A stretch of 64,000 bases of DNA from Candidatus Gottesmanbacteria bacterium (GTDB lineage Bacteria > Patescibacteriota > Microgenomatia > UBA10105 > UBA927): NCBI GenBank assembly GCA_963790805.1, contig CAWBPL010000002.1, positions 956,860-1,020,859 on the forward strand, read 5' to 3'. This document shows positions 1,737 to 44,862 of this stretch, piece after piece. A model generated the notes under the pieces. It did not search any database. It had not been told where the DNA came from and saw only the letters and a program-made list of their open reading frames with translations. The number at the start of each line of letters is the position of its first letter. Positions within the stretch are counted from its first letter, which is position 1. A program made the position numbers and the translations under genes.

Positions 1737-2153
1737 TTAACTGAGAGAGTAAACCTGTGGTGTTTTCAACACATTAGTTTGCTTCGTATAGCCCGACAAA
1801 GACTCTTTGGATGAACACGATGCAGATGCCGGCACAAGTTTGCCTCCGACTGCTACCATCTCAATTTTTTTGGCTAAAGTTAATATGGTCCCGTTTAATT
1901 TCCATGTTCCCGCCTCCGCAAAAGTTGTCCTGTCGCATTTCACTTGACTGGGAACAAATGCGTATGCGCCAGAATTATAGAACTGATAACGGTCATTCCA
2001 ACCGGAAGCAAGCGATGGGCTCACCTGCCAAACACCAACCAAATCCAAAAGCGGATTTTTCGGCAAGTAATTTTTATATACAAAATACCCCACCACACCT
2101 AAAGTCGCGATTATTAGAATAAAAAATAGTGGCGTAAAACCATTTTTCTTCAT
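1737..2153 (-). CDS. N-terminally anchored hypothetical protein (138 aa), MKKNGF paralog
   Basis: The N-terminus MKKNGFTPLFFILIIATLGVVGYFVYKNY is nearly identical to that of the upstream gene. Its start overlaps the upstream stop (ATGA). Confidence 0.6.
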   Translation of the reverse strand: MKKNGFTPLFFILIIATLGVVGYFVYKNYLPKNPLLDLVGVWQVSPSLASGWNDRYQFYNSGAYAFVPSQVKCDRTTFAEAGTWKLNGTILTLAKKIEMVAVGGKLVPASASCSSKESLSGYTKQTNVLKTPQVYSLS

Positions 2154-2782
2154 TTTGTAAATTTAAAGGTCGAGAGAATCTGATCGAATAGTTGTTTATT
2201 TTTCCAATCTGCCGGAGTAATTACCCCCACACCTTTTTGAGATTCCTCATAAGTTAGAGTGTATTTCATACTGTTATGCGTAAAAACAACTACATATTGC
2301 CATCTTGTTCCGATGTAATTGCCCTGAAAATAGTTAAAACCAATTGCCGATTCGCCATCGACCGTTAGATTAATTTGATTTTGGGTTTTATCTGCAGAGC
2401 CAATAATAAAACTGGGACTAAATTTGTCTCCCGAACCTTTTGGATCATATTTATCTGAAGATATAAACATTTGTAAACACCTATCACCCTTATCGTAATT
2501 ACAAGGAGAATCAAATACCGGTTCGGGAATATCTTCAGGGGAGGCTCCACCTGGTGCACCGACAGTCCAACCAACCGGATATTTAATCGAATATTCGTAA
2601 CTTGAATTGAACGATTTCCAATTAGATATGTCAGCAGGCTCGTGGGGTGATGGCATTATGCTAGACGTAGGGTTTGTAGTAGCCAGTCTTTGTTGATAAT
2701 TTATATACACAAAATACCCAACCACGCTCAAAATGGCGATTATTAAAACTATTAGAGTTGGTGCAAAACCGTTTTTCTTCAC
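2150..2782 (-). CDS. N-terminally anchored hypothetical protein (210 aa), MKKNGF paralog
   Basis: The N-terminus is MKKNGFAPTLIVLIIAILSVVGYFVYINY, a single TM anchor. The remainder is predicted to be extracytoplasmic. Confidence 0.6.
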   Translation of the reverse strand: MKKNGFAPTLIVLIIAILSVVGYFVYINYQQRLATTNPTSSIMPSPHEPADISNWKSFNSSYEYSIKYPVGWTVGAPGGASPEDIPEPVFDSPCNYDKGDRCLQMFISSDKYDPKGSGDKFSPSFIIGSADKTQNQINLTVDGESAIGFNYFQGNYIGTRWQYVVVFTHNSMKYTLTYEESQKGVGVITPADWKNKQLFDQILSTFKFTK

Positions 2783-2887
2783 TTCTCTAACTATGAATTA
2801 TATTAAATTGGAAGTCAATAAAGCCATATTTAAGTGAGGGTTATGTATTTTTTCCATGCCAAAATAAATATTCTAAGTACAATTAAC

Positions 2888-3742
2888 TTAGGCTGAATAA
2901 TCAACTGAGGAAACGGTAATCCAGCCTGTTGACGCTGCGTTATTTTCTTTCCGCTTATACACTTGGTTTCTGGTTGCAAAAAGAAACATCAGTTTTTTGC
3001 CATAGTATTCTTCAAGAAACGAAGAGAGGAGTCGTTTAAGATAAATAATCACCATATGGTTTGGGCAAATGAAATAAAACTGCAGGGATTGGATATTCTC
3101 ATCCTCCCAATTTTCCTCATCAAGCACAGTAAAGATACGTTTCAGATAGTTGCGAAGCATCATCCGGGGGATATAGGCATCCAGAATATAAAACAGTGCA
3201 TGATCTATACCTTTGGATTTTTTGCTATACCCGTATCCATCCGGTTTGAGATGGGGAAGTAACGCAAAATCCAGCCCTTCATAGAATGCCGGAGTAAATA
3301 ACTGGAGCTGATTGGATCGTAACGTTATGCCGTCTCTGAACCATTTCGTTAGGAGATCAGGATATTGAGCGCCTTGAGTATTCAACCACAGAAGGTAACA
3401 TTCGGCAAGCGTTTGGCAACGGATGCGAAAGGCTTTTGACCGTTTCTTGTCTTCCCGGAGTCGTGCAAGATATGCTTCTTGCCACCCACCATATACGTCT
3501 CGAATATAGTCTCTGCCTTTTCTGGCAAGAAAGTAGATCGCAGGTTTTGTAAGAGTTCCAAAGACAGGGTGAAAATCCCGTTCTACATACCGTTTCTCCA
3601 CTAAGTCTTTGAGCCAACTATTGATCCGTCGATGATCTTTATGATTCAGGAATATCTGTATTTGTTTACTGTTGATAAATCTGAATGTATAGATCAGGGT
3701 GAGTATTGTGTTTTGTTTTTGAGTTATTATTTTTTTAGCCAT
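2888..3742 (-). CDS. replication-relaxation family-like wHTH protein (284 aa)
   Basis: The N-terminal pattern ILTLIYTFRFINSKQIQIFL...RRINSWLKDLVEKRYVER...PAIYFLARKGRDYI resembles the winged-helix N-terminus of plasmid replication-relaxation proteins. This is from memory and was not searched. Confidence 0.4.
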   Translation of the reverse strand: MAKKIITQKQNTILTLIYTFRFINSKQIQIFLNHKDHRRINSWLKDLVEKRYVERDFHPVFGTLTKPAIYFLARKGRDYIRDVYGGWQEAYLARLREDKKRSKAFRIRCQTLAECYLLWLNTQGAQYPDLLTKWFRDGITLRSNQLQLFTPAFYEGLDFALLPHLKPDGYGYSKKSKGIDHALFYILDAYIPRMMLRNYLKRIFTVLDEENWEDENIQSLQFYFICPNHMVIIYLKRLLSSFLEEYYGKKLMFLFATRNQVYKRKENNAASTGWITVSSVDYSA

Positions 3743-3988
3743 ATGAATATATATGTATACGGCAGGAGATTTTGATTATTACTTGATTACGTAGAGAAGA
3801 GCAGTAGGTCTATGTGGTTTGTAACGCCAGGGAACCCCTTTCCCTATTAGTTAAAGGATAATACCACTGTTATTTGTGTAAAATCAAGGCTACTTGAGTT
3901 AAATAATTGTCCCAGAAGGGTGGGACAAAAATGATGACTTGCTGATACTAATAATACGGTGAAATATCACCTGTTTGTTGTCGTAAGT

Positions 3989-4017
3989 TTGTCCTATTCG
4001 AAAAGTCTTGCTATAGT
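3989..4017 (+). promoter_or_regulatory. sigma70-like promoter TTGTCC-17-TATAGT, 6 nt upstream of the ATG at 4024
   Basis: The hexamers and the 17-nt spacer were counted directly in the sequence. Confidence 0.35.
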
Positions 4018-4023
4018 ATTGGC

Positions 4024-4194
4024 ATGGGAAAACAGCAAAGCTTAACATTAAAACGAGTACTCAAAAGACATAAGAAAAATCCACAAGACAAAAGGCTACA
4101 TGAGGTTATCGAAAAGGGAGAAATAGCACAAAGCGAGTTTTTGGGGTTGTTGAAAAAAGCCATTAGCACAAAACCTCAAAAATATACCAAGTAA
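4024..4194 (+). CDS. small basic protein (56 aa), hypothetical
   Basis: My own translation is MGKQQSLTLKRVLKRHKKNPQDKRLHEVIEKGEIAQSEFLGLLKKAISTKPQKYTK*. A promoter abuts the start. It is below the ORF-track cutoff. Confidence 0.3.
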   Translation: MGKQQSLTLKRVLKRHKKNPQDKRLHEVIEKGEIAQSEFLGLLKKAISTKPQKYTK

Positions 4195-4209
4195 GTGCTT
4201 CGTCAGTGC

Positions 4210-5103
4210 TTACACTTTGACATATCTCACTCCAGCGAGTTGTTGAAGGAGAAGATTAAACATCATCCCATTCTTCCGGTGGTTATACCGAAACGTATAT
4301 TCATCGACATACGCTTGGAGATATTTCTTGGAGACAATCCGATAGACGCCGTACACCCCACGTTTGACAATTGACCATATCCCTTCGATATTCTGGGTAT
4401 GGATATCACCATAAACATACTGACTTGCACTATGGTTGACGAATTGATGCATATAGCCATATTTTGAAAGCTGTGCATAGCCACCCCACTCATCCGTGAG
4501 GACACGTGCCGTCGGACTGACATGTTCCTGAATCTGTTTGAGAAGAATCCATTTCCCTACGCCTTCGATGTGTTTGAGATATGCATGCCCTCCGCGTTTG
4601 ACCATGCCCATCACAACCTCTTTTGGTTTCTCGTTAAAGTTCGGGACATAGGCTCTGTTCTTTGCCTTGCCTCCCATAAAGGTTTCATCAACTTCAACAT
4701 CCCCATCAAAGGGAGCACCATCTTGGGCCATGAGCATACGAATCTGCTTAAACATACGCCATGCTGTTTTGTACGTCACCCCCAATTCCCGCTGGAGTTG
4801 TTTCGCTGACACGCCTGAGCGGGTAGCGGAGATAATATACATAGCGTAGAACCAGTATTGCAGGGGTGTGGTTGTTTTTTCTAGGATAGTCCCAGCAAGC
4901 GGGGCAATCTGATATCCACAGGAACATTGGTAGACCTGCCTGCCTTCAATTTTGTAGAATTCCTTGATTTTGTTGCACCGCTGACAAAAGATTCCTTGAG
5001 GGCATCGAAGATGCTTGAGAACATCTAAACACTTATCATTAGTACCGTATTTCTGTAAAAACTTTCCGAGGCTAAGTTTCTTTATCATAGCCTCAGTATA
5101 CAA
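4210..5103 (-). CDS. IS1595-family (ISXO2-like) DDE transposase with N-terminal zinc ribbon
   Basis: It has Cys clusters CPQGIFCQRCN...YQCSCG, followed by TPLQYWFYAMYIISATRSGVSAKQLQRELGVTYKTAWRMFKQIR and a DDE region (VEVDETFMGG...TDEWGGY). The probable ATG is at 5088 (MIKKLSLGKF). Confidence 0.85.
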   Translation of the reverse strand: MYTEAMIKKLSLGKFLQKYGTNDKCLDVLKHLRCPQGIFCQRCNKIKEFYKIEGRQVYQCSCGYQIAPLAGTILEKTTTPLQYWFYAMYIISATRSGVSAKQLQRELGVTYKTAWRMFKQIRMLMAQDGAPFDGDVEVDETFMGGKAKNRAYVPNFNEKPKEVVMGMVKRGGHAYLKHIEGVGKWILLKQIQEHVSPTARVLTDEWGGYAQLSKYGYMHQFVNHSASQYVYGDIHTQNIEGIWSIVKRGVYGVYRIVSKKYLQAYVDEYTFRYNHRKNGMMFNLLLQQLAGVRYVKV

Positions 5104-7821: not shown

Positions 7822-9233
7822 ATATGAAATGCGATTTGAATGAGAATCCGCATGACGGTCAGAATAACCGCTGCGCCAATCAGTATGAGCGCTCCGTTAT
7901 GAATTGCATCGTTTTTGTATCGACCCATAAGCGATACATCGTTGGAAAAAATATAGAGAAACCGCATTTCAACGATGAGAAAAAGACTTTGAATGACGCC
8001 TATAAGAAGTGCGGTCTGGAAGAAATTAATATGTACGTAAAGGGTAATGAGAAATGCCGGAATTGTAAGAAGAGCAAGAAATATACTATTCGTTGTTGAA
8101 AAATGTTTAGTCTCCTCATTCACATGCTCCAGACCGAAGAGTTCGTTGAACATGTGAGTGGTAGAAAGCACTATCGCGACAAGAGTTGTGAGGGCGATAA
8201 AGAATAGTCCTAAGGCGACAAATACTTCTCCTAATTTTGAGTGAATAAATACCGGCAATTTCGCGAGACCCTCATGAGTAACAGTGACCAGCGAGCCGTG
8301 AGGAAATAAATATCCCATGACGATGACAAAGACGCACGCGAACAAAAAAGACAACAGAGAAATCGTCCTGTTTTCCATGACGTGATATTCGAGCTTATCC
8401 ACATTAATTTTACGGCGGTACGTGTACCGGCTGATAAGAAGCTGGCTCCATGCCGTGACGGTGGCGCCCAGTAGCGCGAAGATGTAAAAAAAGCTGCTTC
8501 TTGACGCAAGCGGTGTCCAGTAACTTTTCCACGCAAGAAGAGACCTTCCGATATCGGCGCCATGTACCGCTACGTGCGCAATAATGACGGTGTAAAAGAT
8601 TAAGATCCATAGAATCATGTATCCGAATCTTTTGGGGAGCCGCAGTAAAAAAAGTGCGGCGAGATAACAAAGGAGAAAGAGAATGACGAAAAGATAATTC
8701 ATATCCAGAAGCCTTCCGACAATGCGAATGACTGAAAATATCTGTACGACTGACAGGAGGTTGAGAAGTAAAACGACCACAAAGAGAAAAAGAGATGTGC
8801 GGACGCCGAAATATTGCCGGATAAGTTCGACCGGACCTCGATTGGATACAACGACAATCCTGCCCATGATGCCGTTTATGAGGTGATTGATAAGAAATAC
8901 GATAATAAGAATCCCCAAGCTTTTGATGCCGAAAAGAGATCCGACCACCGCATATGCGCCAAACATGGCGACGTCAAAGTCGACGAGCGACGTAATGACG
9001 CCTGGAACTAGGATCGAAATGATAAGCGAAATAAATTCAGATCTGCTGATCTTGTCTTTCACTGTATAAGTATAGTACAGGCATGCAACCGCATGGGTTT
9101 TTCCTGCTCGTGATACAATAAACGGCATGAATCCGGAAATGAACAAGAAGTTAGGATTTATCTCGCTTCTGGGCACGGCGCTTGTGTTCGGCTCGACGGG
9201 TGTCTGGATACGGATACTCAATACCCACCTCAC
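7818..9233 (-). CDS. Nramp-related divalent cation transporter with non-canonical metal site
   Basis: It is a polytopic membrane protein. The TM1 region VPGVITSLVDFDVAMFGAYAVVGSLFG...GRIVVVSNRGPVELIRQYFG is colinear with MntH GPAFIAAIGYIDPGNFAT...GIATGKNLAEQIR. The stop overlaps the mgtA start (ATGA). The true start is probably at or downstream of 9128. Confidence 0.55.
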   Translation of the reverse strand: MRWVLSIRIQTPVEPNTSAVPRSEINPNFLFISGFMPFIVSRAGKTHAVACLYYTYTVKDKISRSEFISLIISILVPGVITSLVDFDVAMFGAYAVVGSLFGIKSLGILIIVFLINHLINGIMGRIVVVSNRGPVELIRQYFGVRTSLFLFVVVLLLNLLSVVQIFSVIRIVGRLLDMNYLFVILFLLCYLAALFLLRLPKRFGYMILWILIFYTVIIAHVAVHGADIGRSLLAWKSYWTPLASRSSFFYIFALLGATVTAWSQLLISRYTYRRKINVDKLEYHVMENRTISLLSFLFACVFVIVMGYLFPHGSLVTVTHEGLAKLPVFIHSKLGEVFVALGLFFIALTTLVAIVLSTTHMFNELFGLEHVNEETKHFSTTNSIFLALLTIPAFLITLYVHINFFQTALLIGVIQSLFLIVEMRFLYIFSNDVSLMGRYKNDAIHNGALILIGAAVILTVMRILIQIAFHI

Positions 9234-38737: not shown

Positions 38738-39457
38738 ATGTCGGGACATTCAAAATGGTCAAAGGTTAAACATCAGAAGGCGACGACAGACGTTATAAAA
38801 GCCATGGCGTTTACCAAAGCGGCGCGTGCAATAACGATCGCCGTTCGCGAAGGCGGCGGCGGTAACCCAGCGCATAATTTTCGGCTTCGTCTTGCCATCG
38901 AAAAAGCTCATGAAGTCAATATGCCAAAAGACAATATTGAGCGGGCGATTGAAAAGGGCGCCGGCGGCGGGGGAGCGAGTATGGAACAAATTCTCTACGA
39001 AGGGTATGCACCTCATGGAGTGGCGATGATTATAGAAGCGGCAACCGATAACCGTCAACGTACCGTTTCGGCAATTAAGAATCTTCTTGATCGGACGGGA
39101 GGAACCATCGCAAGTCCCGGTGCCGTATCCTATCTTTTTGAGCGGGTGGGAATTTTGACCGTTCCGAAAGAAAATCTTACGTATGACGCATTGTTTGAAG
39201 CGGCGCTTGAGGCCGGCGCCAACGACGTTGTTGAAACAACCGATATGTTTGAAGTCTATACAACCGTTGCCGCACTCCTTACAGTGAAACAGGGACTGGT
39301 AAACAAAAACATTATCATAGACAATACGGAGATAATTATGAAACCAGTGACGGTCGTCCCGCTTGACGATGCCAAGATGACGAAACTGGAGCAGCTTGTT
39401 GATGAACTTGAATCTCTCGATGATGTGCAACACGTTTTTACGAATGCGCAAAACTAA
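38738..39457 (+). CDS. yebC: YebC/PmpR-family transcriptional regulator
   Basis: MSGHSKWSKVKHQKA...NMPKDNIERAI...YEGYAPHGVA. Confidence 0.93.
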   Translation: MSGHSKWSKVKHQKATTDVIKAMAFTKAARAITIAVREGGGGNPAHNFRLRLAIEKAHEVNMPKDNIERAIEKGAGGGGASMEQILYEGYAPHGVAMIIEAATDNRQRTVSAIKNLLDRTGGTIASPGAVSYLFERVGILTVPKENLTYDALFEAALEAGANDVVETTDMFEVYTTVAALLTVKQGLVNKNIIIDNTEIIMKPVTVVPLDDAKMTKLEQLVDELESLDDVQHVFTNAQN

Positions 39458-40291
39458 ATGAAACCTATTACTGAATTGCAACGAAAATTAGTCAGGTGGG
39501 ATCACCGGTTGGCGCTCACCAAACGCCAGCAGTTTGTCGTCGCGACGATAGTTTTGGCGTTCGGTTTACTCTTGTCGCAACTGGTCCCCGTTGAGACGCG
39601 CTATCCGATTACGCTCGCATTATCGGTATTCGCCTACGTCGTATCTGCGATAGCACTGAGAGAAGATTTAAGAGGTATCGAATGGTTTACATTATTACTT
39701 CTGCCGACTTTATTTACGGCGGCGGTCGCTCTTTTTTATTTTTTATTGCCGGTCCGCTGGCTTACGCGCATCCCGTTTGTCGTTTTGTACGCGGTCGGTA
39801 TGTATGCACTTCTTTTGACTGAAAATATTTATAACGTTGCTGCCGACAGAACAATTGCACTTCTTCGTGCGGCCCACTCTGTCGGGTATCTTCTGACTTT
39901 GACGACGTATTTTTTGCTGGTTCAGACTGTTATGGCATTTCGGTTTCCTTTTTATATCAATGCGCTATTTATTGGACTCATCAGTTTTTTTCTTGTATTT
40001 CAATCGCTCTGGTCGGTTGTTCTTGAGGAACAGGTGAGTAGGCGAGTGTGGGCATTAACGATTGCCATAACCGTTGTGCTTTCTGAGCTTGGGTGGTTAT
40101 TTTCATTTTTACCGACCCCGTCGACCCTAATGGTTCTTTTTTTAACCACCAGCTTCTATGGCATGGTCGGCATGGCACAGCAGTATCTTGTCGAAAAACT
40201 GTATAAAAAAACCGTCATTGAATTTTTTTCTTTGTGCAGTATTGTTTTTGTTATTGTTTTGTTAGCGACTCATTGGCGGGGAAATTTTTAA
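39458..40291 (+). CDS. polytopic membrane protein (277 aa), hypothetical
   Basis: About 7 hydrophobic helices. It starts immediately after the yebC stop. Confidence 0.55.
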   Translation: MKPITELQRKLVRWDHRLALTKRQQFVVATIVLAFGLLLSQLVPVETRYPITLALSVFAYVVSAIALREDLRGIEWFTLLLLPTLFTAAVALFYFLLPVRWLTRIPFVVLYAVGMYALLLTENIYNVAADRTIALLRAAHSVGYLLTLTTYFLLVQTVMAFRFPFYINALFIGLISFFLVFQSLWSVVLEEQVSRRVWALTIAITVVLSELGWLFSFLPTPSTLMVLFLTTSFYGMVGMAQQYLVEKLYKKTVIEFFSLCSIVFVIVLLATHWRGNF

Positions 40292-40347
40292 GGACATGAA
40301 AGTAGAGGAGAGGGAAGTAGTTCACCCTGAGCGAAGCCGAAGGGTGA

Positions 40348-40413
40348 TATAGTTTGATGTAGTAAAACTATAGGGTATATATGTGGCCTATAATAGTCCT
40401 ATAGTTTGATGTG
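40348..40413. repeat. left copy of the CCTATA(A/G)TTTGATGT motif cluster (possible recombination site)
   Basis: TATAGTTTGATGT at 40348-40360, inverted AAAACTATAGG at 40364-40374, GGCCTATAAT at 40385-40394, and CCTATAGTTTGATGTG at 40398-40413. Confidence 0.5.
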
Positions 40414-40584
40414 TACATGCTTGGCGAAGCGGATGTGGATAATATTTTTCACGAAATAAGGCTGTTCATTTCACGCTGCCCTTCGTGGTAGCGCAGCGTA
40501 CCCCCCCTGTGTTTGACGGGTACCATACGGTATCCGTCTCTCTTGAGTACACAATGTGTGCGTATTTATATCATTCCGGATTGT

Positions 40585-41046
40585 CACTACGCTCTAAACA
40601 AAACTATACGGCAGAAATGTTTTGTCGATTATCAGCCTCAAAATACACCGTTTGGCGCATATGAAAGCCCTAAAAACACCCGAAAAGCAAACTCTTACAT
40701 TCTGTGTGGGTATGTGCAAGAACGTATTGAAACATAGCCTGCATGATTGAGGGTAGAATAGACGTTTAGCTTGCTCTTATGCCCTAAATAGCGACGTCTT
40801 TCATATCAATACATAGCGTTAGTTAGCCTCAAAAATAGTCGTTTAGAACGTATCAATGCGCTAAATTAAACTCCAATGAATATCGCATCATATTCACATC
40901 TCGGGTATAGCATAATAGTCAGCCTTAAAATCGCTGTTTTAGATTATTAATATGCTCTAAACACTACATTCTAGTGGTTTGGGGGCTATGATAAAAACGT
41001 GATATTTAGCCTCAGAATTAATCATATAGAGCGTAATAATGCGCTA
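40585..41046 (+). repeat. array of 5-6 degenerate ~42-53 nt repeats (AGCCTCAAAA..GTTTAG..N13-17..GC[GTC]CTAAA), period 87-102 nt
   Basis: AGCCT units start at 40634, 40736, 40825, 40921 and 41008. A half unit ends at 40599. Each unit can fold through TTTAG/CTAAA. No ORF spans the region. Confidence 0.6.
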
Positions 41047-41175
41047 ACTGTGACCTCGTCGATAAAACCCGAAAGAGGGGTTATAAAGACTCTCTTGGGC
41101 TGCACCATTGGCCCTTAACATTGAAAGAATTGATAAATAACAGGAGAAGACCCTTTTTTGCCGGAAGCTCGGGGT

Positions 41176-41599
41176 GAGGCTCGCTGTATTCCCTTGAGAA
41201 TACACGCCATAAAAGTGTTTTCGATTATTGTCAAAAATTAGCACCCAAGGACGGCAGGGCGCTTATTACCATAATGTCGTACAATAATACTTTTACGACG
41301 TCTGGTGAGGCTAACACCGGAAGTGGTCTCATTTTGCTTGCTTCATGTCGTGCATTCCATACAACAAACAATTCGCATCATTATTGTGAATATATATCGG
41401 TATCATTTCCCTCAATTTTGTCCCACATATTTTTCTTCAGTACGTATGGATGAAATGCTTGTTTCTGTTTGCCGGTTTTTATGAAAAAGCCACTTTTATC
41501 GGTTTGCTCATTTTTCCTCTATAACAGAGATGATGAACTATATAGCTAGGCCGCAATTAAGTCATTCTAGGTCATTACAGGGGCTCACAATTGAGGCTA
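41176..41599 (-). repeat. three inverted partial copies of the AGCCTCA-type repeat
   Basis: TGAGGCT at 41176-41182, TGAGGCTA at 41306-41313, and TTGAGGCTA at 41591-41599. The copy at 41306 also shares GTAATAA(T)GCGC with the forward unit at 41008. Confidence 0.4.
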
Positions 41600-41626
41600 G
41601 GTTTTTCGGCTTGGACAGTCGGTGAT

Positions 41627-42544
41627 TTATAAACGTTCCGCCAAAGAGATGAGTTCTTTGGCTAAAAAATAGTTGGTTTCATGGCGGTCTTTTGGTTCCA
41701 CCAATATGAAGATATCATTGCGGTTTTTGAAAAGCTTCAAAAGTTCAATCATTTGTTTTTTATTTGGAACGGCCTTTGAGGTTTCAAGAATCGGATTATC
41801 GAGTGAGTTGTGGTTATCGGTGCCGTTATACGGCGGCATAACAAACCCGAGATGAATAAGACGCGTTTTGGGAGCCAAGAGCTCGGTAGTGCCTCTTAAG
41901 AAGGTCCACACGGCGTCAGAATCATTGCTGATAACGTTTGCCGCCGTATGACAAAAGTCGTTGGCTACAAAGAGGCCGGATTGTGAAGCTTGAATGATCG
42001 CTCTTGCCGGTAGTTCATAGGCGTTTTTGGGTTTGAGGCGTGCCTTGGCATTATACCAGCCATCAGTGATGCGGGCAGGGACCGTTTCAACGGTCAAAAT
42101 GACACCCTTGGTTTTTGCGTATTCATGGATTTTGATCGCATGTTCGAGGAATGTTTGGATTGCCACATCAGTCTCAACCGGATTTTGAACAACATCAAAC
42201 TGTTGCGTATCATAGTTGACGTGAAGCACAGCTGCGGATCCGGGATGAATGTTTACGTATGAGCATTTCCGCTGGGCGGCGATATCTAGAGTTTGGCGCA
42301 TAAGGTCCATACTTTTTTTAGCTATATCAGAATCCGGATATGCAATATTCGGCGATATGTTGTTAGGAAGAAGTCCCCAGAAATGAAGTCCGATTTTCGC
42401 GCGCCTGCGGTTTAGCTCTTCAAACAGCGCTTCATACCGGCGATAATCGTTTACGTTAAACCAGATTTCGGCAAACGGCGCGTTCGTTTTGGCTAAACGC
42501 GTGAAGGACGCCGCGTCGGCATTGAGTTTAATACCAAGTTTCAT
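41627..42544 (-). CDS. xylose-isomerase-like TIM-barrel protein (sugar phosphate isomerase/epimerase family)
   Basis: 305 aa. The pattern YVNIHPG...TVETVP...ANDFCH is typical of AP-endonuclease-2/TIM-barrel enzymes. Confidence 0.55.
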   Translation of the reverse strand: MKLGIKLNADAASFTRLAKTNAPFAEIWFNVNDYRRYEALFEELNRRRAKIGLHFWGLLPNNISPNIAYPDSDIAKKSMDLMRQTLDIAAQRKCSYVNIHPGSAAVLHVNYDTQQFDVVQNPVETDVAIQTFLEHAIKIHEYAKTKGVILTVETVPARITDGWYNAKARLKPKNAYELPARAIIQASQSGLFVANDFCHTAANVISNDSDAVWTFLRGTTELLAPKTRLIHLGFVMPPYNGTDNHNSLDNPILETSKAVPNKKQMIELLKLFKNRNDIFILVEPKDRHETNYFLAKELISLAERL

Positions 42545-43902: not shown

Positions 43903-44862
43903 ATGGATTTAGCAGCCCTTATCAAAGACTTTCTTGAATACCTTGAAATTGAACGGAATGTTTCCCAGCTGACAATTCGCAACTATGCGCACTATTTGGA
44001 GAGGTTTCGGGCCTTTCTGGCGTGCTATCCCCCCTCCCCTGCCGGTGTGAAAACCGTGAAAACTATTGGGCCCTCGGACATAACGTCAGAATCGATCCGG
44101 CAATACCGCCTTTACCTTTCGCGTTATGTCGATGAGCATGATATGACGCTTAAACGCGTAACACAAAATTATCATCTTATCGCCATCAGAAGTTTTCTTA
44201 AGTACCTTCTCAAACGGGATATTGCCGTCGTGGCGCCGGAAAAAATCGATTTGCCCAAAGCCGAAAGCCATTCGATAAAATTTCTGGAGCGCGAGCAGAT
44301 TGACCGGCTTTTGAACATGCCGGAGATTTCAACTGCCGACGGACTGAGAGATAAGGCCATATTGGAAGTGCTTTTTTCGACCGGCCTTCGCGTCTCGGAA
44401 CTGGTCGGATTGAATCGCGATGTAATCAATTTTGAACGCAAGGAATTCGGCGTTATCGGAAAAGGACGCAGGGCCCGTGTGGTATTTCTTTCCGAATCCG
44501 CAGCAAGCTGGCTCAAGCGGTATATTGATAGTCGTGAGGACGACGCACCGGCGCTTTTCATCCGCTATGCCGGCAAAAAAGCGGATCCTGGTCAAAATGA
44601 AGCGGAGTCGCTTCGGCTTACCGCCCGAAGCGTGCAGCGGCTGGTGGAAAAATACGTCAAAAAAGCCCGTCTACCCGTAAAAATTACGCCGCACGGGCTT
44701 CGCCACAGTTTTGCAACTGATCTTCTTAGCGGCGGGGCTGATCTTCGGGCCATTCAGGAGATGCTGGGGCACAAAAACGTGTCGACCACGCAGATTTATA
44801 CGCACGTCACCAATCCGCAACTGAAAGAAATCCACGCAAAATTTCACCACAAAACGACGTAA
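43903..44862 (+). CDS. XerC/XerD-like tyrosine recombinase
   Basis: SAM-like N-domain (LEIERNVSQLTIRNYAHYLERF). Catalytic residues appear in GLRVSELVGL, HGLRHSFATDLL and LGHKNVSTTQIYTHV. Confidence 0.88.
   Translation: MDLAALIKDFLEYLEIERNVSQLTIRNYAHYLERFRAFLACYPPSPAGVKTVKTIGPSDITSESIRQYRLYLSRYVDEHDMTLKRVTQNYHLIAIRSFLKYLLKRDIAVVAPEKIDLPKAESHSIKFLEREQIDRLLNMPEISTADGLRDKAILEVLFSTGLRVSELVGLNRDVINFERKEFGVIGKGRRARVVFLSESAASWLKRYIDSREDDAPALFIRYAGKKADPGQNEAESLRLTARSVQRLVEKYVKKARLPVKITPHGLRHSFATDLLSGGADLRAIQEMLGHKNVSTTQIYTHVTNPQLKEIHAKFHHKTT

Follow-up and report, generated by a model that had tools for sequence, protein, structure and literature searches.

What occupies a 1.3-kb interval without a credible gene in the genome of a Candidatus Gottesmanbacteria bacterium (assembly GCA_963790805.1, contig CAWBPL010000002.1), and what are the divergent repeats that fill it? 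The interval lies at positions 40292–41626 of the window, by which we mean the whole 64,000-nucleotide stretch analysed (positions 956,860–1,020,859 of the contig, forward strand), and is the gap between the stop codons of convergent genes at 39458–40291 (+) and 41627–42544 (−). Its repeats had been described in an earlier note on this DNA. They occupy the middle of a larger element on the + strand, at about 40345–41606, and this element, the order of its blocks, its strand and its position 3′ of a gene for a DUF5656 protein are conserved in about 80 genomes. Judged from sequence comparison, the element is best explained, with a probability of roughly 55%, as a new lineage-specific gene for a long non-coding RNA (ncRNA), the tandem modules of which would serve as multivalent binding sites.

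Repeat units in the window

All open reading frames (ORFs) in the interval are 74 aa or shorter, in line with the earlier note, which had seen no credible coding sequence there. A repeat search of the window identified a 45-nt family, D1, with copies at 40629, 40820, 40916 and 41003 that are 64–80% identical to the reference copy (unit 3, at 40820). Four clear units and one degenerate unit, each about 45 nt long, lie within 40629–41049. Their AGCCT heads start at 40634, 40736, 40825, 40921 and 41008, giving periods of 102, 89, 96 and 87 nt; the starts and the 87–102-nt period are as the note had read them. Each unit carries two boxes, UUAGCCUCAAAA and the dyad-like UUUAGnGCRU-N4-AYGCnCUAAA. 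A hidden Markov model (HMM) of the unit, built from homologues (individual loci are designated by L numbers), matches the 64-kb window only at 40619–41047, on the + strand. The units, the half unit and the inverted heads that lie between other blocks are:

40575–40599, + strand: half unit (box 2 only), TCCGGATTGTCACTACGCTCTAAAC; the consensus TTTRGATTGTTAcTACGCTCTAAA is kept in homologues, and repeat D4 links it to unit 4.
40629–40689, + strand: unit 1, TCAGCCTCAAAAT...GTTTGGCGCATATGAAAGCCCTAAA, with trailing block AACACCCGAAAAG; D1 copy; HMM match 40619–40695, E = 1.7e-13.
40731–40790, + strand: unit 2, degenerate, with head AGCCTGC, then TTGAGGGTA, then GTTTAGCTTGCTCTTATGCCCTAAA; weak HMM match 40757–40791, E = 0.88.
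40820–40867, + strand: unit 3, TTAGCCTCAAAAATAGTCGTTTAGAACGTATCAATGCGCTAAAT; D1 reference copy; HMM match 40814–40872, E = 6.3e-13.
40916–40963, + strand: unit 4, TCAGCCTTAAAATCGCTGTTTTAGATTATTAATATGCTCTAAAC; D1 copy, 64%; HMM E = 5.7e-4.
41003–41075, + strand: unit 5, the last, TTAGCCTCAGAAT...ATATAGAGCGTAATAATGCGCTAAC, with block AAAACCCGAAAG (41064–41075); D1 copy, 80%; HMM E = 3.4e-7.
41175–41181, + strand: inverted head TGAGGCT, window-specific; L002 lacks it at the aligned position.
41306–41312, + strand: inverted head TGAGGCT, directly after the hairpin block described below; position variable in other homologues.

The note had counted five units and a half unit; four clear units and the half unit stand, and unit 2 is degenerate, with TTTTGAGGCTA at the aligned place in L002. 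The A(A/C)CCGAA(A/C) block that trails a unit is present in most homologues, and the family consensus after the last unit is AAaCCCGAA. The inverted head at 41306 belongs to an inverted repeat, I2, the 21-nt arms of which make it 76% complementary to unit 3; L002 has TGAAGCT there.

The exact heptamer AGCCTCA occurs 12 times in the window, compared with 4.0 ± 1.9 expected, and none of 100 shuffles reaches 12, so that the motif exceeds what shuffled sequence yields, one of the outcomes on which the note had made its proposal depend. Six of the 12 copies fall within 40634–41598 (965 bp), three on the + strand and three on the − strand (41175, 41306 and 41592). The three inverted heads that the note had placed downstream are thus exact, and its eight occurrences of the heptamer comprise six exact copies and two variants. 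The D1 family, the enrichment of AGCCTCA and the restriction of the HMM matches to a single site establish the repeats as real and local. Tandem Repeats Finder reports no array at the units, because they are too divergent.

Conservation across related genomes

The closest genome records carrying the AP-endonuclease-like protein encoded 3′ of the interval (46–56% identical) are metagenome-assembled genomes (MAGs) of Candidatus Gottesmanbacteria and two MAGs labelled 'uncultured Gammaproteobacteria bacterium', L002 (CAZKLT010000012.1) and L004 (CAYHFH010000087.1). The label of L002 is probably wrong, because this locus has the element and a synteny typical of the candidate phyla radiation (CPR); L004 matches only via the AP-endonuclease-like protein. 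Three of the four loci found through the protein have a non-coding gap of 0.7–1.2 kb beside DUF5656, and L004, a 4.7-kb contig, shows none. An exact-match search with the proteins of the flanking genes gave a single short contig, which added nothing. The gaps of L002, L003 and L005 share with the window nearly invariant blocks of 10–25 nt in unchanged order (GATATAGTTTGAT; ATGTGGATAAT..TTTCACG; TTTCAC; CTTGAGTACACAATGTGTGCGTA; the half unit TTTRGATTGTTACTACGCTCTAAA; the units; AACCCGAAAG; GTCGYACAATAATACTTTTRCGACGT; CCTAGGTCAYTACAGRGGCT), with GTCGYACAATAATACTTTTRCGACGT and the terminal CCTAGGTCAYTACAGRGGCT missing from L005.

A metagenome search with a pattern of 22 bases from the 5′ core of the element retrieved 84 loci, about 80 of which have the remaining blocks in the same order; these are metagenomic or MAG loci of Gottesmanbacteria-like CPR (Microgenomates). 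The common synteny is TGT, LytR_C, TPR (−), YebC, DUF5656, the element, an optional AP-endonuclease-like gene (−) and Xer, with DUF5656 upstream of the element on the same strand in all loci found with the pattern. The shared blocks and synteny make the repeats of the earlier note the middle third of a conserved element at about 40345–41606, and the comparison with orthologous loci that the note had proposed recovers element and units in about 80 related loci.

The element is about 1.25 kb long in the window and about 0.65–1.3 kb in relatives. It contains one to five units (195 units in 73 distinct elements), spaced in three classes of 75–79, 83–89 and 92–96 nt, and the order and orientation of the units are identical in about 80 genomes. 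Alignment columns that are at least 90% conserved form runs of 11, 10 and 9 nt in the element, compared with 5 at most in the adjacent coding sequence (CDS). No conserved ORF was detected in the element: matches of the window ORFs in tblastn fall in three frames or strands at once, and the open frames of homologues (17–109 codons) have no common start and, in several lineages, meet a stop inside a conserved block. Coding potential is thus rejected, and the element is non-coding for protein.

Conserved blocks outside the repeats

Conserved and variable blocks flank the units on both sides:

40345–40353, + strand: extended −10 promoter-like box TGATATAGT (block TGATATAGTTTGAT), with a predicted transcription start near 40360.
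40398–40412, + strand: second copy of the TATAGTTTGATGT box (CCTATAGTTTGATGT), a possible tandem promoter or 3′ arm of a 5′ hairpin.
40432–40475, + strand: conserved 5′ core, comprising ATGTGGATAAT (40434–40442), TTTTTCACG (40445–40453) and CATTTCACG (40467–40475).
40476–40541, + strand: variable region V1, the hairpins of which differ between lineages (ACGCTGC...GCAGCGT and GGGTACC-ATAC-GGTATCC in the window).
40542–40564, + strand: conserved block CTTGAGTACACAATGTGTGCGTA, with the small hairpin GTACAC-AAT-GTGTGC.
41143–41152, + strand: purine-rich motif GGAGAAGACC; a looser second copy, CCGGAAGTGGTC, lies at 41317–41328.
41253–41301, + strand: GGCAGGGCG, then GTCGTACAATAATACTTTTACGACGT, the most conserved block of the 3′ half, with the stem GTCG.A/T.CGAC and a 12-nt loop.
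41566–41606, + strand: conserved 3′ block TTCTAGGTCATTACAGGGGCT, then the terminator-like hairpin GGGGCTCA-CAAT-TGAGGCT (41580–41598) and a T run (41602–41606).

The two promoter-like boxes contain an exact 13-nt direct repeat (D6, at 40348 and 40400), and CCTATAG or CCTATAA is conserved in homologues at the position of the second box. The 5′ core is invariant in L002, L003 and L005. V1 ranges in length from 0 to about 150 nt among homologues, which carry differing self-complementary inserts at this one position. In the 3′ half, the GTCGTACAATAATACTTTTACGACGT block is present in 50 distinct homologues with an invariant loop, CCGGAGRAG or GGGAGAAGTGGT recurs 3′ of this hairpin block in many homologues, and the 3′ block has the consensus cTaGGtCAcTACAGaGGCT in 36 full-length elements.

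Two further segments were noted at the ends of the element. A purine-rich block, GGAGAGGGAAGT (40306–40319), lies between the DUF5656 stop codon and the TGATATAGT box and is present in most elements; in one clade RNAalifold predicts pairing with a UUCCCCC tract towards the 3′ end, and the block may belong to the transcript or stand in for a UP or −35 element. At the other end, an 18-bp segment 3′ of the conserved 3′ block reads AAATTTAGCCTCAATTTT in L007 and L015 (the window equivalent lies within 41586–41606), and in the close relative L058 it reads AAAATTGAGGCTAAATCTT, the reverse complement of AAATTTAGCCTCAATTTT but for one base. Across the family, 15 elements have this segment in the 'head' orientation and about 14, including that of the window, in the 'anti-head' orientation, and the hairpin and U run are kept in both. 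The pattern looks like a recurrent small inversion of a palindromic terminator.

Transcription signals

In 72 of 78 homologous elements, the motif TGnTAYART lies no more than 120 nt 5′ of the core, with −42 as its most frequent position. At the opposite end, 20 of the 36 full-length elements have a 3′ hairpin at or below −4 kcal/mol that is followed by four or more U within 8 nt, and in most of the others the hairpin is weaker. Three stem designs are used, and the U run is found on the + strand only. The element thus has, as consensus matches only, a putative promoter of its own and a putative intrinsic terminator on the same strand, which is what marks an ncRNA gene.

Two genes elsewhere in the window have an extended −10-like box close to their ATG: TGATACAAT, 7 nt before that of an EamA-family gene (9111→9127), and TGATATAAT, 6 nt before that of a 194-aa ORF (11694→11709). 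This position suggests that the motif is the promoter type of the host and that the mRNAs of these two genes would be leaderless.

RNA structure and proposed role

The clearest structural signal is a 15-bp hairpin in the 3′ half. In 14 lineages, AATACTTTTRCGACGT (AAUACUUUURCGACGU) pairs with a downstream segment, with covariation: 94.3% of positions are paired, compared with 85.8% in shuffles and 31–53% in slid controls, and 22 double-change cells are found where 6.5 are expected, a value reached in none of 500 shuffles. In other lineages, including the window (41204–41219, repeat I8), the partner of AATACTTTTRCGACGT lies upstream instead. The GTACAC/GTGTGC hairpin, which RNAalifold pairs at alignment columns 143–156 and, for 145–148, with 152–155, shows 21 one-sided changes that are pairable only as G–U on the + strand, and the one-sided changes in the terminator stem are likewise pairable only as G–U on that strand. 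The alignments used for covariation were not structure-aware. In an exploratory RNAalifold run on nine close relatives, performed with no null, many helices contain compensatory pairs. Minimum free energy (MFE) z-scores of whole elements range from +0.2 to −9.3 (16 elements), with a + strand mean of about −3.8, and the effect is similar on both strands.

Contacts between separate parts of the element were evaluated as well. Between successive units, complementarity of the 3′ arm to the 5′ arm that follows is not significant (0.742–0.752, compared with 0.735). Long-range helices between heads and anti-heads find no family-wide backing, the numbers and positions of anti-heads not being conserved among genomes; the window has three exact heads and three exact anti-heads, a balance that is not conserved, and the 3′-terminal ACAGRGGCU is the only conserved anti-head. 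The 5′ core and the 3′ variable region pair no better than shuffles do (mean z = −0.03). Some units (in L016, L035 and L003) end in CAATCTAAA, the exact reverse complement of TTTAGATTG, the sequence that forms the 5′ arm of a neighbouring unit or, in most elements, that of the half unit. In L035 the unit at 390 matches that at 467 in nine of nine positions, and pairing between units is possible there but not significant family-wide. Finally, at unit HMM columns 36 and 43 (in the window, for example, 40854 and 40861), A–C (57) and G–U (34) exceed G–C (29) and A–U (19), with an odds ratio of 3.5 and a Fisher p = 0.0008, uncorrected for relatedness; this excess might reflect a conserved RNA pair of wobble geometry, or nothing.

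Taken as an ncRNA gene, the element would give rise to one RNA of roughly 40360–41606 (+), started from the extended −10 box near 40345 and ended at the intrinsic terminator at 41580–41606. Within each module, the UUAGCCUCAAAA box would be single-stranded and the UUUAGnGCRU...AYGCnCUAAA box weakly paired and dyad-like. The conservation of the boxes as sequence, rather than as a covarying stem, suggests repeated recognition sites, and the partner that reads them could be a protein, perhaps dimeric, or a complementary RNA. The UGAGGCU anti-heads, including ACAGRGGCU at the 3′ end, could pair with heads, in cis or between molecules. Such an RNA might act as a multivalent scaffold or as a titrating, sponge-like RNA, in contrast to an ornate ribozyme. 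Sequence conservation without covariation, the variable copy number and the unique conserved 5′ and 3′ blocks fit this role better than a catalytic fold.

RNA gene or chromosomal DNA site

A number of results weigh against an RNA product. The earlier note had taken the TTTAG/CTAAA arms of the unit to be kept by compensating changes, a claim that fails: in 189 units from about 70 genomes the arms are conserved without covariation. Pair 31–48 is AU in 102 units, GU in 55, AC in nine and GC in two, and the inner pairs are 35–74% pairable, with compensatory types absent. Over the inner seven positions, arms of the same unit are 0.706 complementary, compared with 0.735 ± 0.008 for randomly swapped arms, so that swapped arms pair better than the true ones. 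Neither a stem enclosing the AGCCUCA head nor pairing of the variable 6-mer with downstream sequence was detected (permutation z, −1.4 to +1.4), and the flanks of the units show no covariation at the level of helices. In the GTCG.A/T.CGAC stem, the second pair (C/U × G/A) varies independently (CG 16, CA 13, UA 12, UG 9), and an outer extension of this stem is not general. For the 5′ domain, RNAalifold gives two invariant hairpins only, with no double changes. The window element itself has an MFE z-score of −1.5, about equal on the minus strand, and the mean z-scores of variable regions are −0.7 to −1.0 (V1, −0.7). The transcription signals have their own ambiguities. TGNTAYART is not enriched across the window (10 found, 6.4 expected), and the promoter-like box TGATATAGT can also pair with AAACTATA at 40366–40373, so that this box would be either transcribed or an operator-like inverted repeat. 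Furthermore, a dyad-symmetric 24-mer with independently varying halves is what a dimeric DNA-binding protein would be expected to leave, and the 5′ core is a DnaA-box-like cluster: ATGTGGATAAT is the reverse complement of a perfect DnaA box, the only one within about 19 kb.

These observations lead to the strongest competing explanation, which we regard as tentative and clearly less probable than an RNA gene: a chromosomal DNA cis-element that encodes no RNA, composed of two to six composite, dyad-symmetric protein-binding sites (TTAGCCTCAAAA and TTTAGnGCRT-N4-AYGCnCTAAA) and the DnaA-box-like cluster, with a role in nucleoid organisation, replication-fork control or titration of DnaA, similar to datA or DARS. 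It would account for box 2 arms that are conserved to a palindromic consensus and vary independently without compensation, for unit spacing classes that are roughly 10 bp apart, for the family-invariant perfect DnaA box and two TTTCAC(G/A) boxes within 45 bp, and for the overall weakness of the RNA-structure signals. The strand-specific promoter-like and terminator-like ends and the covarying hairpin are, however, hard to explain by a pure DNA site, and self-complementary inserts that vary in length while keeping their positions are a usual feature of RNA.

Replication-related roles also find little in the surroundings. Cumulative GC skew rises through 33–54 kb of the window, and skew is positive on both flanks in ten of ten other genomes with flanks of at least 3 kb (+0.113 on the left, +0.053 on the right); because the skew keeps its sign in all 11 genomes, the element is neither oriC nor ter. 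An origin has a cluster of several DnaA boxes, usually beside dnaA or dnaN, and the element has one perfect box (40434–40442) and two weak ones; other perfect boxes lie at 8395 and 21093. No dnaA or dnaN gene is present among the 20 ORFs scanned, no parS site was found beyond chance at up to three mismatches, no cluster of DnaA boxes exists beyond the core, and no gene for a DNA-binding partner is specifically adjacent.

Other explanations

An RNA could also be made from this locus without a gene of its own, as the 3′ untranslated region (UTR) of the DUF5656 mRNA, a precursor of small RNAs with one per unit, or both; we consider this quite unlikely. The element always lies directly 3′ of DUF5656 on the same strand, no terminator was noted between the DUF5656 CDS and the element (no systematic search was made), the promoter-like box can be folded into a hairpin, in which case it would be transcribed, and the units are modular, in one to five copies. 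Set against this are the extended −10-like box that separates CDS and core in 72 of 78 elements, and units that have no promoter or terminator signals of their own and no stable, covarying hairpin to define separate small RNAs. A single functional molecule is also favoured by the conserved blocks at the 5′ and 3′ ends, which are not repeated. Of the earlier note's suggestion of a tandem family of small structured RNAs, the RNA is the best-supported direction, and the small, structured copies are replaced by modules, without a covarying hairpin, of a single element of about 1.25 kb.

The same note had offered iterons or centromere-like sites of an integrated plasmid-like element, and target sites of the nearby tyrosine recombinase (a shufflon or invertible region). 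Both would fit direct repeats with inverted partial copies, the recombinase gene 2.3 kb away and the 18-bp 3′-end segment (AAATTTAGCCTCAATTTT) that is inverted between L007/L015 and L058. Both are nevertheless very improbable. The element sits in conserved housekeeping synteny in about 80 genomes, no similarity was found to 72,556 plasmids (PLSDB, distant mode) or 50,697 phage records, and no rep, par or mob genes flank it among the neighbouring proteins scanned. A shufflon has a dedicated invertase and segments in alternative orientations bounded by recombination sites; here the recombinase is a highly conserved housekeeping enzyme of the XerC/D type, unit order and orientation are fixed in all genomes, and 18 bp is far too short for recombinase-mediated inversion, with the hairpin and U run kept in either orientation. 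A scan of viral contigs with the 5′ core pattern returned nothing; a scan with the unit pattern gave three matches. Two of them, L090 and L091, have none of the other blocks of the element and appear to be chance hits within phage sequence.

A degenerate guide-RNA array (CRISPR or TIGR) or a ToxI-like antitoxin repeat array has next to nothing in its favour beyond array-like size, a 45-nt core, variable linkers of 30–50 nt, a leader-like 5′ region, a terminator and the presence of TIGR systems in CPR bacteria (PMC12045711). The units diverge within an array and are conserved per position between species, which is contrary to the pattern of an array built by acquisition. No gene of the cas, Nop-domain (Tas) or ToxN/AbiE-like type was found within ±5 kb, and the dimensions of TIGR arrays differ.

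The individual array types were examined as follows. A CRISPR array has near-identical direct repeats of 23–47 nt, strain-variable spacers and cas genes nearby; here the copies are 64–80% identical, too divergent for such an array, as the note had judged, and unit positions are orthologously conserved across genomes, with no cas genes. Type III toxin–antitoxin systems (ToxIN, CptIN, TenpIN) combine near-identical tandem repeats of about 34–45 nt with a terminator and, on the same strand, a gene for a toxin endoribonuclease; in the element the repeats are divergent and spaced, and the gene 3′ of it, a member of the xylose-isomerase-like TIM-barrel family, is convergent. TIGR arrays have a 36-nt unit with two alternating repeats of 8–12 nt, two spacers of about 9 nt and a Nop-domain Tas protein (Faure et al. 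2025, PMC12045711). The element resembles them as a tandem array in CPR, possibly made as one precursor transcript with a rho-independent terminator, but differs in its period (87–102 nt in the window and 75–96 nt in the family), in its conserved core of 45 nt and in the absence of a Tas gene, none of the ten proteins scanned having a Nop domain.

Comparison with known families

The element matches no known family, and its nearest analogies are conceptual. In a search of the whole window against Rfam 15 at gathering thresholds, only tRNA-Leu at 24291 matches. Within 40200–41700, at E-values of up to 10, six chance-level matches were found, all far below gathering, among them CRISPR-DR (E = 8) and CrcZ (E = 8.4). 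The Rfam comparison proposed in the earlier note was equally barren for 11 homologous loci (128 kb). Families covered include OLE, GOLLD, ROOL, HEARO, raiA, RNase P, tmRNA, SRP, 6S, rRNA, group I and II introns and CRISPR-DR. Likenesses to the lambda/rrn boxA (CGCUCUUA), a Cas9 repeat (GUUUUAGAGC) and the 16S 5′ end (AGUUUGAU), and to the sarcin–ricin loop, SRP domain IV and anticodon-loop or T-loop motifs, find no Rfam support and were set aside as coincidence. No description of a lineage-specific CPR ncRNA, of such an element or of DUF5656 was found in full-text searches of the literature, and a survey of ncRNAs in 50 genomes does not mention CPR.

OLE (ornate, large, extremophilic) RNA (RF01071) offers one analogy. 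Both are longer than 600 nt, lineage-restricted and highly conserved, with biochemical function unassigned, and both adjoin a gene for a polytopic membrane protein, oapA for OLE and DUF5656 for the element. OLE RNA is always encoded beside oapA, the gene for its membrane partner OapA (PMC12265935, PMC10898510); the DUF5656 adjacency may reflect merely conserved gene order. The two have no similarity in sequence or structure (no Rfam match), their hosts are Bacillota and CPR, respectively, and OLE is intricate and supported by covariation, whereas the element has little covariation and tandem sequence modules.

CsrB and RsmZ (GGA hairpins) and CrcZ (A-rich motifs) likewise carry several copies of a recognition motif on one transcript, in species-variable number, and the element shares with this type of RNA motifs that are conserved as sequence and not by covariation. 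Its modules are, however, longer (about 45 nt, two boxes) and 75–96 nt apart, and the element as a whole is three to five times longer, with unique conserved 5′ and 3′ blocks. We know of no link between the element and CsrA, Hfq or Crc.

GOLLD and ROOL are large RNAs that form self-assembling, RNA-only complexes (PMC12286853). The element is also large, and its AGCCUCA heads and UGAGGCU anti-heads could in principle mediate intermolecular contacts, but these two RNAs have ornate, covariation-rich folds and are frequently encoded near tRNAs in prophages, whereas the element is chromosomal, syntenic and poorly structured by MFE and has no Rfam match.

On the DNA side, iterons and DnaA-box clusters (datA, DARS, those of B. 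subtilis) have similarly spaced direct repeats, and the element adds one perfect and two weaker DnaA boxes to this likeness. It differs in having no replicon genes, plasmid similarity or skew inversion and in units unlike DnaA boxes, and an RNA is indicated by its covarying hairpin and by its promoter and terminator signals.

If it is indeed an RNA, the element would belong to the loosely defined group of large lineage-specific bacterial ncRNAs of unassigned function. A bolder and decidedly speculative proposal is that it represents a large RNA of a new class, found in CPR/Microgenomates alone, the tandem modules of which would be the functional parts, either in a multivalent ribonucleoprotein with DUF5656, similar to that of OLE and OapA, or by self-association of heads and anti-heads.

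Gene neighbourhood

The window has the neighbours TGT, LytR_C, TPR, YebC, DUF5656, the AP-endonuclease-like gene, PMT and Xer. The genes closest to the element are:

38738–39457, + strand: YebC/TACO1 gene.
39458–40291, + strand: DUF5656 protein gene (277 aa), directly 5′ of the element.
41627–42544, − strand: AP-endonuclease-like gene (305 aa), of the xylose-isomerase-like TIM-barrel / AP-endonuclease-2 family.
43903–44862: XerC/D-type tyrosine recombinase gene, 2.3 kb from the element.

The DUF5656 protein has nine hydrophobic segments, as judged by eye, and is a polytopic membrane protein. The recombinase scores as XerC/D (249 and 245 bits) and is also above the cut-off of the archaeal XerA model (222 compared with 220 bits). 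It is the best-conserved protein of the neighbourhood, with 62–87% identity to the window's protein in nearly all loci; DUF5656 is below this, at 50–81% in most loci. In genomes without the AP-endonuclease-like gene, the recombinase gene starts 120–210 nt 3′ of the element on the same strand. An antisense ORF of 240 aa (38759–39481, −) covers almost all of YebC/TACO1 and is most likely spurious.

Near the start of the window, a stretch at ~2000–5100 has a GC content of 37–40%, compared with about 46%, and contains a gene for a Replic_Relax-domain protein (2888–3742, −) and an IS1595-family transposase gene (4210–5103, −). This stretch, probably an inserted mobile element, explains the only segment of negative GC skew, at the window start.

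Biological significance

Most CPR bacteria are uncultured, and their genomes are small and streamlined. An element of ~1 kb that encodes no protein and yet persists at one position in about 80 genomes is probably not dispensable. As an RNA, it would extend the small set of large bacterial RNAs with unassigned function (OLE, GOLLD, ROOL, raiA), from the ornate folds of which it would differ by its tandem sequence modules. If it is a DNA site, it represents an undescribed kind of chromosomal protein-binding array, and either outcome would be new biology for the CPR group. Should the proposal of a new RNA class hold, the RNA would be a core cellular component of these organisms, because it is kept in strongly reduced genomes and its blocks are more constrained than the neighbouring proteins.

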